64,000 bases of DNA from Octopus vulgaris (taxonomy: Eukaryota), in contig OX597833.1 in assembly GCA_951406725.2 (NCBI GenBank), positions 992,001-1,056,000 on the forward strand, read 5' to 3'. The stretch's first letter is position 1. Every line of letters begins with the position of its first letter. The position numbers were made by a program, and so were the translations under genes. The notes under the pieces were generated by a model, which was not told the origin of the DNA, ran no database searches, and worked only from the letters and a program-made list of their open reading frames with translations. Shown here one piece after another: positions 2,514 to 64,000 of this stretch.

Positions 2514-2577
2514 TGAGTGACGAGCATGGAAGTATCATCACGGATATAATCATCATCATCGTCGTCGTCGTCACCAT
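2514..2577 (-). CDS. Ig-cluster gene 0, exon 1 (signal peptide); rest of the gene lies left of the window
   Basis: CCAAC-ATG-G start, reads MVTTTTMMMIISVMILPCSSL, phase-1 donor A|GTAAGT; paralogous to the exon 1 copies at 16174, 28103 and 50778. Confidence 0.75.
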
Positions 2578-2760
2578 GTTGGTTGGTAGAGAAAACGAAC
2601 GCGGATTGCCTCGAACGAAAGCATTGTAACCACGTGACATATTTGATCCAGGTCAAATACAAATTAGAGAAAATTTGGCAATAGTTTTTCGTGTCGAAAT
2701 GTGATGAAACTAATAAGTGATAAAAGTAATTAGTTAATTAATGAAAAAAGTGCATAACAA
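2578..2760 (-). promoter_or_regulatory. Conserved proximal upstream block of the Ig genes with an E-box and an AGGTCA-containing near-palindrome
   Basis: CACGTG at 2631-2636 and ATTTGATCCAGGTCAAAT at 2641-2658; block repeated upstream of every exon 1 (about 16250, 28182, 50836); regulatory function is inferred. Confidence 0.4.
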
Positions 2761-3414
2761 ACAAAACAGAAAGAAACAAAAAGAAAGCTCCTGTGAAATG
2801 AGAAAATTATTTTCAAATAAGAATAATTAAGAAAGTGATGTTAGGTTTACGACAGTCCGTTGAGGGACCTTGTCTTGCAGAGAATTGGTGACCCCACTAG
2901 AGATGGTGCTACAACAAATACATCAATACAGTCTGTAAAGTGGTTGGAGTGAGGCAGAGCGTCCACCTGTAGAAACTATTGTAATGCAGACATTGGTGCA
3001 GTGTGTCTAGTGACATCGCTGTGTTTACTCTCTCTCTCTCTCTTTTACTTGTTTCAGTCATTTGACTGCGGCCATGCTGGAGCACCGCCTTTAGTCGAGC
3101 AAATCGACCCCCAGGACTTATTCTTTGTAAGCCAAGTACTTATTCTATCGGTCTCTTTTGCCGAACCGCTAAGTGACGGAGACGTAAGTACACCAGCATC
3201 AGTTGTCAAGCAATGCTAGGGGGACAAACACAGACACACAAACACAGACACACACACACATATATATATACATATACATATATATATACAACGGGCTTCT
3301 TTCAGTTTCCGTCTACCAAATCCACTCACAAGGCTTTGGTTAGCCCGGGGCTATAGCAGAAGACACTTGCCCAAGATGCCACGCAGTGGGACTGAACCCG
3401 GAACCATGTGAAAT

Positions 3415-59672: not shown

Positions 59673-61918
59673 CTGTAGAGAAAATATATATTTTATTGTG
59701 AATAAGATTCAAAATAACATACTAGATGGATGCTTTGACACAAATTGCGATGTTGATATATAACGAAAAATTTGAACATTAATCAAAATAGATGACATGT
59801 TACTATGCAATATGTTTACGGTTTCCAGGGCTTCAACTAATCTTTGTTATAGCTATAGCAACACTAGAATAGGGTGTAACTGGGGGAGCGAATGTAGGGA
59901 TTCTTTGGACGCTCTAGTGCATATTGACCGATCCACCAAAGCTAATAAATCGGATATTCTTGGGTAGACCAAAGTGATAAGCACTGTTCATTGATCGGCA
60001 TGAATATCCCTTTTGATCTTATATTCGGGCAAATGAATTAGAGAAGCTCATTGAAATCGAAAATAATGTGGAATCTCAATGCAGCTACAATAACAGGGAT
60101 TGTGGGAGAACTAGAAATGGTCAAAAAAGGAATTCAAAACTATTTGCGAATGACTCCTGGCTTACCATCCATGCAAGAAGGGAAAATGTCTAACAATTGC
60201 ATGGATATATTCAATAAATTTATATTAATGGGTTTGGACCAATTTCACGAAAACATGAGCAGAATCCGGTAGCGAACCCGTGTGCGTAAAATGGCGAGAT
60301 TTTCCGCTTTGGGGCAGATTTCGTCAAATTGATATCACGACGCAAAATGCCTGAATTTTGCTTGAGAAATAAAATCGCTTTATCAAATCAAAACCTGAAG
60401 GGCTGGGGAATTAAAAGAACGAATTGAAATAAGTTTTAGCAAATCAAAACAATTCGCATTGGAATGAAGAATTAGCAAATGCTACTTAGATTATCGTTAA
60501 TACGCTGTCTGTTTGTATTCATGAAACATTTTTCGTCAAATTTCGGCATTTCTCGTCAAATTGATATCACGATGACTAGTGCGAAAATTACCGAAATTTT
60601 ATGATTTGGGAAAATCGATGAGAATACATCTCTTTTAGTTTCTGCTCAAAGCTGCGGCAATGCTGATGCACCGCCGTTTTGCTACACTGATATTACTAAG
60701 AGCCTTCTCTTAGATGTGGCACTTGGTGAAGAATGGAGTTTGATATAGCTACCCTCATTTGCACCTCTTGCCGTGAGGTAGGTTCATCTGGGACTCTCGA
60801 CAGAAAGAGGTCCAGCTTTGATTTAAAACCTCCTACATCTACTTTGTGCAAGTTCCTCAGACTCTTTGGGAGAATATTAAAAAGCTGTGGGCCCTTGAAA
60901 ACCAGGCTGTTGCAGAAGCTGGTCCTGAAGCGTGATGGCATTGCTGGGATCTTTGGCACTATGCCGTGTCGCCCCGTTCTGGCATTGGTGTAGCTTTCAA
61001 TGCCAAAATTTGGCAAAATTCCTTCCAGGATCTTCCAGCAATATATTACTGCATACCTCTCCCGTCAATTAGTCTACAAGTATTTTCTCCCCTGTCTTTA
61101 ATGACTATGTCTGGTCGATTAGCCTGGATCGTTCTGTCGGTGTTGACTGGAAAATCTCAGAGGATCCTGACATTTTTACCTTCAACGATTGGCTCAGGAT
61201 GATGTCAATACCAGTAGACAGGGGTGCTAATTTTGTAGTGTTTACATATTTTCCGATGTAAATACTGTCCAACCCTATCGTGGTAATTTTTGTATTTGTT
61301 TGGTGTGAAAAGAAGACACCCCGAGACGAGCGATGTCTTCTGTCGAATAGCGTTATATTCTTGTAGTTTTTGGAACGCAAACTTTGATCTTCGGCCGCTA
61401 ATATGAAACCCCCAGTCTGCTTTCAGTCCTGAGTTTCTCAGCCACATATCATCATCATCATCATCATCATCATTATTATTATTCTTATTATTCTCCTTCT
61501 TCTTCTTCTTCTTCTTCTTCTTCTTCTTCTTCTTCTTCTTCTTCTTCTTCTTCTTCTTCTTCTTCTTCTTCTTATTATTATTATTATTATTATTATTATT
61601 ATTATTATTATTATTATTATTATTATTATTATTATTATTATTATTATTGTTGTTATTATTATTATTATTATTGTCATTGTTATTATTATTATTATTATTA
61701 TTATTATTATTTATTATTATTATTATTATTACTATTATTCTTGCTGTTGTTGTTGTTATTATTATTGTTGTTGTTATTATTATTATTAGTATTGGTAGTA
61801 GTAGTAGTAGTAGTAGTAGTAGTAGTAGTAGTAGTAGTAGTAGTAGTAGTAGTAGTAGTACTTGTATTAGTAGTAATAGTGTTACTATTTTTTTTTCTTA
61901 AGATGAAACAAAATTAAC

Positions 61919-62251
61919 CTGTTAGCATCCTTGAATTAGACCTCTTTGCATCCGATATCTCACACGTATAAGATCCTACATCACCGCAATCTAGATTTGC
62001 TTTCCAGCATTTTAATACTGCATTAATCTTTCTCGATTGCGGCATGTTGCAGTAGTAACCTTTCAGGTCACGAATGACTTTAAAGACTCCTTCACCAGCG
62101 TTGAAACCAATATCAACAACGACTTCATTGTTACGCCTGAGTCTGAAGAATGATAAGTCTTCTGCTTGAACACGACATGTTATATCCATTTGAGTTGGTC
62201 CCTCTTCCCCAAATCCTTCGAATGGTTTTAGGCTTGTCATTTCAACACGAT
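61919..62251 (-). CDS. Ig-cluster gene 4, exon 2 (V-like Ig domain); exon 1 expected just right of the window
   Basis: 333 nt; I saw no nucleotide difference from gene 3 exon 2. Confidence 0.82.
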
Positions 62252-64000
62252 CTATGAGTGAGGAACAAATCAATGAATGAATACACGAAAAATGGGACGG
62301 AAAAAATTACTCAAAGACAGATTTAATTATCGCTTCTACTTTAGACGCGAAACTCGAAAGTTATCTGATCAAGTATCATAAAAGCATGAAACTATAAGTA
62401 GCTCTTTCGGTTGTGACTGTCTGTCTATCTATCTATCTATCTATCTATCTATCTATCTATCTATCTATCTATCTATCTATCTATCTATCTATCTATCTAT
62501 CTATCTATCTATCTATCTATCTATCTATCTATCTATCTATCTATCTATCTATCTATCTATCTATCTATCTATCTATCTATCTATTAGTCAATCAATCTAT
62601 CTATCTATCTATCTATCTATCTATCTATCTATCTATCTATTTATCTATCTATCTATGGCGAAAGAATGTATCTGGTGGACGCGTCTGAAAGGATTGGAGA
62701 CAAACATTTCCTCTCAGGTCAATCTCTCATCAACTTCTTCAAGTACCACTTGAAAAGGAAAGTGAGAGTAGAGAAGCAAGTTTTGTCTAGCGAACGTTTT
62801 AAAAAAAGATGGGTGAATGCAGCAAGGATGGCACGTATGAATGACGAAGCCATCTTCAGCATAATCCTATGAACCCAGAAATTGAAAATAGAGGGTTACC
62901 CACTTGCAAACAAATGTGGTAACATATAACAATATTGACCAAGGTTACCGGGGTCTTTTTCGTAGGCTTTTCTTCCCACGGATAAACCTTACTTGCTTTC
63001 CCCTTTACACCATACATCATGACACTGTGATACACGATCCCTATTGATCGTTTTTTTACCTCTCCCCCTTTTTTCCTATTTTTTCTTCTTTTTTCATTTT
63101 TCTTTTCTTTTTTCCTTTTTTCTTTTTTTTTCTTTTCCTTTTTTTCTTCTTTTTTTCTTTTTTTTCTTTCCCCTTTTTTCTTTTCTTTTTTTCTTTTTCT
63201 TTTGTTCCTTTTCCCTTTTTTCTTTTCCTTTTTTTGTTCTTTTTTCCCTTTTGCGATCCTTTTGATCGAAAACCTACGCCACTTTTTTTTTCTCCCCCAA
63301 AAGAAAAGCTCTACCTTGTAACTTGTCCCATCTGTGTGCAGCCCTGTGTGGCCAATAAAGAAACTTATCTATCTATCTATCTATCTATCTATCTATCTAT
63401 CTATCTATCTATCTATCTATCTATCTATCTATCTATCTATGTCTGTCTGTCTGTCTGTCTGTCTGTCTGTCTGTCTGTCTGTCTGTCTATCTATCTATCT
63501 ATCTATCTATCTATCTATCTATCTATGGGTTTATATGCTCTCATTCGTAGGTGGAATATTGCTATTGAGAGAAACGGTGACTATGTTGAGGAGTAGGGAT
63601 GTGATACGCAGAGGACCAGCTTCATTTCGATGTATGATACATGTTCCTTTGTTGATGATTTTACCTGTCCTAAACAAAATGGCATTTCTTTTCGACTCAC
63701 TCTCGTATATATGTATTTGCAAGAAAAATACTTAGTTGGAAGAGAATGCGTGGCGTTCAATTATATGGTAATATAAATGATATATGTATATATATGCATA
63801 CATATGTATATGTATATATATATATATATAAATGTTTTTTTAATTTCTCCTCTGATTCCGGAATTACTACTATTTGCGGTTAGCCCTGGTTGCTATTTCT
63901 AGTGGGTCGAACGGCCTATTATAGCCGTTCCTCAATTTGTTGTTGTATATATATATATATATATATATATATATATATATATATATATATATATATATAT

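Follow-up and report, generated by a model that had tools for sequence, protein, structure and literature searches.

Clustered two-immunoglobulin-domain genes of Octopus vulgaris as candidates for a recognition or host-defence family

The stretch considered here, a 64,000-nucleotide window of the Octopus vulgaris genome on the chromosome denoted C20 (G000:C20:992001-1056000), holds part of a tandem array of genes for proteins with two immunoglobulin (Ig) domains, D1 and D2. A motif-based script located their exons on the minus strand and found four signal, four D1, four D2 and four tail exons, all on that strand. The gene structure, the splicing, the family census, an exon with inhibitory motifs in a related gene and an excess of replacement changes among young paralogs form the established part of this account. 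The family is real and apparently unnamed. Positions given without a contig are those of the window.

Gene array and transcripts

Every exon join in the window is in phase 1 and every intron is of the GT-AG type. The D1 exon measures 333 nucleotides (nt) in 4/4 window copies and in 7/7 across the subfamily, and the D2 exons of genes 1, 2 and 3 measure 321, 324 and 315 nt; that of gene 4 is 311 nt long and frameshifted. This four-exon layout, with a D2 of 315-324 nt in intact copies, had been read correctly in a preliminary description of the window. Its count of at least five minus-strand paralogs captured a real array, larger than was then seen, in which the window holds three of the five (genes 1-3) complete, together with a gene 4 that has a frameshift and a gene 0 that consists of a signal exon alone. 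Joined in frame, genes 1-3 have no internal stop and encode 274, 276 and 274 amino acids when counted from the second methionine, as described earlier; the RefSeq models instead start at the first, upstream in-frame ATG, which gives 295, 297 and 295. The three proteins are 55-65% identical pairwise. Their signal exons, like that of gene 0 (2514-2640, 16174-16312, 28103-28244 and 50778-50898 for genes 0 to 3), contain trinucleotide runs that give variable-length Thr and Met stretches in the signal peptide, with two good start contexts 21 codons apart. The exon encoding MSRGY was rejected as a tail exon, since it ends at a GTAAGT donor and begins the RefSeq proteins.

The spliced transcripts anticipated earlier are borne out by RefSeq models and by a sequencing run. 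In Octopus sinensis, the four exons of RefSeq protein XP_036366562 (P0003) are joined as in gene 2, and the same layout recurs in O. sinensis P0001, P0002, P0003 and P0088 and in O. bimaculoides P0086 and P0087, all of which are named 'uncharacterized'. Four sequencing runs were compared with gene 2 and one of them (X20, of a kind not on record) gave exon joins. A 593-nt contig from this run connects position 22370 with 23236 and 23559 with 25951, leaving out a stretch with CT..AC ends in both cases, and thus spans the tail, D2 and D1 of gene 2 across two introns. The D1-signal join is absent among the joins listed for gene 2 in X20; the run also covers the signal-exon bins, and other X20 contigs carry tail sequence like that of genes 1/7 and of genes 3-6. 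Runs X1, X7 and X14, with no exon joins listed and little or no exon cover, are uninformative on tissue. Compared with gene 2, the X20 contig has six differences in D2 (23236-23559) and none in 209 nt of D1, and the five D2 differences that are listed all yield the residues of O. sinensis P0003.

Some gene models combine these exons in other ways. O. bimaculoides P0086 and P0087 (LOC106878953 X1 and X2) have two different ectodomains and one identical tail, and P0009 and P0010 have one D1 with two different D2s; either these patterns are real cassette splicing across tandem genes or the models were joined wrongly. Automated O. vulgaris models also merge several family genes into long chimeras (P0004, P0014).

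The exons of gene 1 comprise a signal exon (16174..16312, with its first ATG at 16312 and a Thr/Met microsatellite run), a V-type D1 (13335..13667), a constant-type D2 (10145..10465) and a tail whose coding part resembles a glycosylphosphatidylinositol (GPI) signal (9086..9180); the tail exon extends about 36 nt beyond the stop to a donor, and a putative fifth, 3' exon follows at 5988..6316 with a conserved acceptor and donor. Gene 2 has the same order, with signal exon at 28103..28244, D1 at 25951..26283, D2 at 23236..23559, GPI-signal-like tail coding part at 22276..22370 and putative fifth exon at 18582..18940. An internal acceptor near 18780 in this last exon seems to yield the short end, KFSSVF, of the X2 isoform of O. 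sinensis, which is predicted to be a secreted form. In gene 3, the signal exon (50778..50898), D1 (48277..48609) and D2 (45791..46105) are followed by a weakly hydrophobic tail in a shifted-frame reading (45078..45196) and a putative fifth exon (32765..32985); its D1 encodes the same protein as that of genes 4-6. Gene 4 has its D1 at 61919..62251, a frameshifted D2 at 59362..59672 that brings a stop at codon 230 of the joined frame, a tail exon of the shifted-frame type at 58649..58767 and a putative fifth exon at 53257..53644; its signal exon lies beyond the right end at window-equivalent 64371-64491. The frameshift suggests that gene 4 is a likely pseudogene. Genes 1-4 thus each seem to carry a conserved, mostly non-coding fifth exon after the tail.

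The array had been thought to run past both window ends, and this stands on the right, where the subfamily stops after three further genes for seven gene bodies altogether. Genes 3-6 form four 13.6-kb units. Their D1 exons show 0-1 differences in 333 nt and their D2 exons 2-19 in about 306 nt, and their introns diverge by 1-2%. On the left, the next D1 lies about 22 kb from gene 0 and comes from another subfamily. The orphan signal exon of gene 0 (2514..2640, minus strand) is followed by no body of its own subfamily, and a 100-N assembly gap occupies 1819-1918, 600 bp downstream. Treating gene 0 and the distant D1 as one gene is unlikely to be right, as the gene of that D1 has its own signal exon. 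O. sinensis P0001 (LOC118761863) is a subfamily member with no close D1 in the O. vulgaris genome (best 66%), and the body that gene 0 lacks may be its counterpart, lying in the gap.

The introns hold further features. A 12-mer repeat is conserved in intron 3 (9349-9416, 22566-22766, 45370-45592 and 58952-59163) and is rich in Ser, Thr and Asn in two gene-strand frames. As a mucin stalk exon it was set aside, since the X20 contig skips it and there is no pyrimidine-rich acceptor; it could be a rare stalk exon. The long stretch that separates the gene 3 tail from its fifth exon contains, at 41756-43520 on the plus strand, a reverse transcriptase of a retrotransposon without long terminal repeats, read in two frames that overlap (Pfam RVT_1, E 8e-12 and 7e-13). 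Two related minus-strand open frames with no Pfam match (7471-8581 and 38976-40028) presumably correspond to the ends of Penelope-type elements, which they resemble.

Domain folds and tail types

Pfam gives no Ig match for six window domains or two RefSeq proteins, its ig profile is found in 6/58 aligned family members, and a phmmer search of PDB with P0003, the gene 2 counterpart, returned chance matches only. The Ig folds of D1 and D2 are established as models. The AlphaFold2 model of P0003 (predicted local distance difference test score, pLDDT, 81.5) consists of two beta-sandwiches, which agrees with the two Ig domains proposed earlier and assigns them as a V-type D1 and a constant-type D2. 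The modelled D1 is a nine-strand variable (V) fold whose residues 45-158 align to antibody and T-cell receptor V domains (Z up to 12.0, root-mean-square deviation (rmsd) 2.0-2.3 over about 102 residues). Cysteines on strands B and F and the Asp-x-x-x-Tyr-x-Cys motif are present in 27/27 aligned D1 exons. The C-strand Trp is absent, being replaced by Leu in 24/27 and Phe in 3/27, which makes D1 an atypical V domain. D1 also carries three additional cysteines; the extra cysteines may form one bond between strands D and E and another between D1 and D2.

The D2 model (pLDDT 86.9) is a seven-strand constant-type sandwich around a Cys-Trp-Cys core that is invariant in 32/32 sequences. Its match to SIRP-gamma D2 (Z 9.3, rmsd 2.5 over 93 aligned residues) is tied with matches to bacterial Ig-like and Fn3 folds, and D2 may be of the C1 or the C2 type. 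Foldseek with the whole P0003 model returns antibodies and butyrophilins at low TM-scores. No Dpr, Beat or Alr chain is present in the 50 structure matches listed, which does not exclude them. A homodimer prediction for a gene 2-type ectodomain, in which an alignment was not used, scored 0.09 against a mark of 0.32 and is no evidence either way.

The family ends in three ways, GPI-type, secreted-type and membrane-spanning. In genes 1 and 2, the tail begins with Ser/Gly and continues through a spacer to a short hydrophobic end, the pattern of a GPI signal. Its best 11-residue Kyte-Doolittle means are 2.61 and 2.67, compared with 1.46 in gene 3, and its 19-residue means are 1.57 and 1.64, compared with 3.0-3.7 in true membrane-spanning members. 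A full GPI-type pattern (small-residue site, polar spacer, hydrophobic C-terminus and no cytoplasmic tail) is present in genes 1, 2 and 7 and weak in genes 3-5. Genes 1 and 2 are therefore predicted to be GPI-anchored, and genes 3-6, with the tail exon read in shifted frames, may be secreted. The GPI-type tail once assigned to the array thus holds for genes 1 and 2 and is doubtful for gene 3. Absence of a cytoplasmic domain is likewise true of the window genes; the family does have a cytoplasmic member.

The wider family and its membrane-spanning gene

Two D1 queries against the O. vulgaris genome (2.8 Gb, 227 contigs) gave 42 and 48 matches, the smaller set contained in the larger, and both numbers are lower bounds. 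NCBI proteins labelled Octopus vulgaris agree with exons of this genome in every letter. Twelve of the 48 lie at C20 0.86-1.10 Mb, five at 2.85-2.95 Mb, 30 at 43.6-44.7 Mb and one on C1, which places 47 D1 exons in three clusters on one chromosome. One match has stops and one is partial; a further broken copy lies beyond the 48. The broken copies, the four 13.6-kb units and the frameshifted gene 4 are signs of birth and death. The second cluster (G000:C20:2.85-2.95 Mb) resembles the genes at 0.92 Mb, with 23 replacement changes to one silent in D1 and introns about 2% apart, and is either a recent duplicate or an uncollapsed haplotype. Elsewhere, in a subfamily at 44.55-44.73 Mb (P0014, P0030), D2 is followed by a stalk rich in Thr.

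A profile search of 1.84 billion representatives returned 72 hits. Twenty of them were looked up and comprise 11 from Octopus, one from Argonauta hians, three unnamed Logan records, four from bivalves and one from a snake, those from bivalves and the snake being some of the weakest. Homology of the bivalve 'cell adhesion molecule-like' proteins extends over D1 and D2 (HHalign 94.9%, E 4e-8), and these proteins share with the octopus family an extra Cys before the D-x-x-x-Y-x-C motif in D1 and an extra Cys in D2. To judge from these alignments, the family is descended from a molluscan V+C2 Ig family. The tree built from 62 D1 rows unites the window subfamily, with sequences of three Octopus species, in a single clade (100/99); membrane-spanning members are basal, on long branches and weakly placed. 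The expansion looks octopus-specific, with squid and cuttlefish genomes outside the search. This agrees with the earlier view of a lineage expansion belonging to no recognised family, the genome and profile searches pointing to one that is apparently unnamed and expanded in Octopus.

Literature searches by locus identifier or topic found no description of the family, which subscription papers and some supplements may mention. Its identifiers are absent from the searchable parts of the supplements of PMC9712504, PMC10138644 and PMC13230822, the word 'immunoglobulin' is absent from the main text, so far as accessible, of PMC9068888 and PMC10700109, and the accessible text of the reviews and genome papers searched describes no diversified cephalopod Ig receptor system. 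Part of the PMC10138644 supplement lists short-chain-collagen-like skin-mucus proteins of O. sinensis (LOC118766834-38, LOC1187670xx) that are numbered beside family loci. No short-chain-collagen motif was found in the flanks that were fetched, and physical linkage to the family was not seen.

One intron-containing membrane-spanning gene was found, at G000:C20 43.53-43.66 Mb. Its exons encode a signal peptide, D1, D2, a stalk, the membrane-spanning segment, a cytoplasmic part and a last exon ending Ser-Ala-Val, a C-terminus presumed to be of a PDZ motif class. The same ending is found in Argonauta P0036 and Logan P0063. An alternative last exon (43575806-43576066) matches the query P0080 (49% identity, E 9e-17) and encodes an ITIM (immunoreceptor tyrosine-based inhibitory motif), LHYAEL, and an immunoreceptor tyrosine-based switch motif (ITSM), TPYAEV. 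Each of the two last exons continues the phase of the exon before it, and the gene accordingly reads as having two alternative ends, ITIM/ITSM and PDZ-type. P0080, a second form of Logan P0063, is a distant relative with a Pro-rich tail that includes LHYAEL and TEYADI and has two ITIM matches and one ITSM; a fraction of 0.0001 of 20000 tail shuffles give two ITIMs and one ITSM, and both motif kinds are conserved between P0080 and the octopus exon. Searching the genome with P0080 found this exon and the C1 copy only. At G000:C20:43659498-43704096, two signal+D1 cassettes lie upstream of a single D2-membrane unit with no D2 between them, and alternative V domains may share one signalling tail. 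The C1 copy (L011, G000:C1:165.12 Mb) is intronless and its segments match separate exons of the C20 gene, which marks it as a retrocopy with a shifted tail. It keeps an open frame through the membrane segment and a shortened tail, its D1 is close to neither parental cassette, and it may be a functional retrogene or derive from a lost cassette.

The ratio of nonsynonymous to synonymous rates (dN/dS) was estimated for 27 of the 48 D1 exons. Among close pairs (dS < 0.25; 23 of 351), which are not independent and whose choice by low dS inflates the ratio, dN/dS exceeds 1 in 21/23, with p < 0.05 uncorrected in 9/23; the median for 99 older pairs is 0.77. Eight disjoint paralog pairs give a proportion of replacement differences (pN) of 0.132 against a silent proportion (pS) of 0.090 (p 0.005), and the best pair has 24 replacement and no silent changes. 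Between the membrane-spanning gene and its C1 retrocopy, D1 differs at 62 of 306 nt and the signal, membrane and cytoplasmic exons at 34 of 520 (p 5e-9), a threefold faster change with a D1 dN/dS of 2.1. Changes are commoner in membrane-distal loops than in membrane-proximal ones, and remain so in five pairs not used to suggest the loop classes (42 of 94 against 24 of 122; p 7e-5; p 0.011 when only variable columns are counted). In the window subfamily, D2 has a dN/dS mostly of 0.8-1.0, and a C-C' strand pair of D1 is near-invariant in eight distinct proteins from three species (nine rows). Some close 'paralogs' could be uncollapsed alleles; the introns of genes 5-6 are 1-2% apart from those of genes 3-4, within reach of allelic difference.

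Possible function and known systems

The reading favoured here, with somewhat less than even confidence and by analogy, is that the window genes encode spliced V+C two-Ig proteins with no cytoplasmic tail, GPI-anchored or secreted by prediction, and that these serve as decoys or capture proteins without a signal of their own, in a CEACAM-like host defence centred on the single ITIM/ITSM receptor of the family. In this scheme, the V domain of a membrane-spanning founder would bind its ligand and give an 'off' signal of the SHP type. Microbes or parasites that exploit this V domain would drive its rapid change, and tandem copies without the signalling tail would bind ligands of the same kinds, whether at the cell surface or in fluids, and send no signal. 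The window subfamily, with its near-invariant C-C' pair, might share a single ligand or partner. An ITIM receptor with alternative tails, GPI-type and secreted paralogs, birth and death and a fast V domain make the layout of the carcinoembryonic antigen (CEA) family the best analogy, and the ITIM/ITSM and PDZ-type cytoplasmic member tilts the reading towards an inhibitory receptor with decoys or ligands and away from a Dpr-like wiring system. The family as a whole would then likely serve self/non-self recognition.

Several observations weigh against the decoy reading. ITIM and ITSM tails also occur in adhesion and neural receptors, and no family member with an ITAM (immunoreceptor tyrosine-based activation motif) was seen. 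The DNA of the window tail exon shows no likeness to the membrane exon (167 of 1000 shuffles score as high). Members of the window subfamily have clear counterparts in other species, the D1 of gene 2 being identical at 110/110 residues in O. sinensis P0003 and 91/110 in O. bimaculoides, and with a D1 dN/dS of 0.51-0.71 the subfamily is more constrained than the young paralogs of the family. A recognition role, as first suggested for the array, is indicated by the replacement excess in these young paralogs. That excess has weaknesses of its own beyond the inflation of the close-pair ratios. It is missing in 2/8 disjoint pairs, and the 6/8 that exceed their own flanking introns do so against a baseline that local alignment biases downwards. 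Relative to variable strand positions, distal loops show no enrichment (p 0.18-0.32), and with strictly drawn loop limits the bias is not significant in the window subfamily (p 0.12).

The main rival, though rather unlikely, is a self-marker system like CD47-SIRP or Alr, in which GPI-type members serve on the surface as 'self' ligands, are read by the ITIM receptor of their own family and restrain attack on, or adhesion to, own cells or skin. One family holding both an inhibitory-motif receptor and tail-less paralogs would suit this, as would the invariant C-C' strands of eight distinct subfamily proteins, the two signal+D1 cassettes upstream of one D2 and the chemical discrimination of own from foreign skin by octopuses (reported in the accessible part of PMC8988249, citing Nesher 2014). 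Allorecognition, however, needs high allelic polymorphism, and the D1 of gene 2 is identical in two species. Octopuses also do not fuse tissues. A bolder proposition, itself unlikely, is that octopuses independently evolved a vertebrate-style inhibitory-receptor complex, whose ITIM/ITSM gene splices alternative V cassettes and, with some 45 positively selected GPI-linked or secreted paralogs, forms a germline-encoded code of self and non-self, which could underlie individual self-recognition at the molecular level, be it in skin or in blood cells.

A neural wiring code of the Dpr/DIP or Beat/Side kind, in which neurons carry combinations of paralogs that pair through a face of the V-domain sheet, is improbable. 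Its appeal lies in the layout of Drosophila Dpr, two extracellular Ig domains and possibly a GPI link (PMC10084454, in part), which genes 1 and 2 match, in the conserved counterparts across Octopus species, in the PDZ-type isoform of the membrane-spanning gene and in language-model neighbours that include arthropod two-Ig proteins and fasciclin-3-like clusters. The secreted members do not suit it, and the replacement excess, pseudogenes and species-specific bursts elsewhere in the family would fit conflict better. No chain named Dpr, DIP, ZIG-8 or IgLON appears among 27, 25 and 8 PDB matches (E up to 1), a search without direct Dpr sequence comparison; unlike Dpr/DIP (Wirins) and Beat, the octopus family has a rapid turnover and includes a gene with an ITIM. 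Doubtful to a similar degree is a family of ordinary epithelial adhesion or coat proteins that arose from a molluscan nectin/CADM-like gene and multiplied through drift and relaxation of selection, with assembly duplicates among the copies. The bivalve homology, a D2 dN/dS near 1 and the possibly allelic introns of genes 5-6 and 3-4 are in keeping with it; relaxation alone, however, does not yield replacement-to-silent counts of 24:0 or 23:1, and cysteines and frames are kept in 27/27 aligned D1 exons. Reproductive recognition, or seminal or egg-coat proteins diversifying by sexual conflict, is very improbable. Fast, positively selected GPI-type or secreted surface proteins are typical of gamete recognition and a selection signal is present; yet the gene 2 D1 is the same in O. 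vulgaris-type animals and O. sinensis, and an ITIM receptor would not be expected.

Whichever reading prevails, a family of about 48 genes that is largely missed by Pfam and combines one inhibitory-motif receptor with numerous tail-less paralogs evolving under diversifying selection offers a specific candidate for immune or self recognition in octopuses. A defined gene list makes the octopus self/non-self question testable and is relevant to disease in octopus aquaculture.

Among invertebrate systems, likeness to Hydractinia Alr and to snail FREPs had been raised earlier, and identity with either fails on defining features. Alr is a cluster of about 41 divergent loci that contain V-set domains, bear ITAM/ITIM tails and are poorly recognised by Pfam (PMC9546547, in part); the octopus family shares the clustering, divergence, V-set domains and poor detection and lacks the defining features of Alr. 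Snail FREPs and VIgLs are also diversified molluscan Ig genes, with a role in defence, and were rejected since no fibrinogen or lectin domain is among the Pfam matches of 58 aligned members and the window frames end in the tail exon. Nearer are the bivalve 'cell adhesion molecule 2/3-like', nectin-like V+C2(+I) proteins (XP_055996651, XP_033758322), homologous over D1 and D2, which differ in keeping the C-strand Trp and in having mostly a third Ig domain and a membrane-spanning segment. By a general resemblance, they may belong to the group of oyster CgCAICP-1. This protein is a haemocyte pattern receptor (PMC6994640, in part), and the CAICP-type Cys-rich motif and membrane-spanning segment after the Ig domains are absent from the window genes.

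The closest parallel in organisation is the mammalian CEA family, with CEACAM1, GPI-linked CEACAM5/6 and secreted PSGs. It has a similar mix of member types and an N domain driven by pathogens, which exploit the inhibitory receptor, and tail-less relatives may be decoys (as given in part of PMC2832619). Both families are clustered V+C Ig genes with an ITIM/ITSM-bearing, alternatively spliced membrane-spanning member, GPI-type and secreted paralogs, a fast-evolving N-terminal domain and conversion-like homogenisation. They differ in sequence, where a weak generic profile match (E 4e-4) is all that links them and nearer relatives are molluscan, and in the GPI-type exon, whose derivation from the membrane exon is not supported in octopus. 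The CEACAM N domain has no B-F disulfide, whereas octopus D1 keeps both cysteines and adds others. CEACAM would thus be an analogy and not a matter of descent, and the octopus family would be a convergent counterpart of the CEACAM, SIRP and Siglec clusters.

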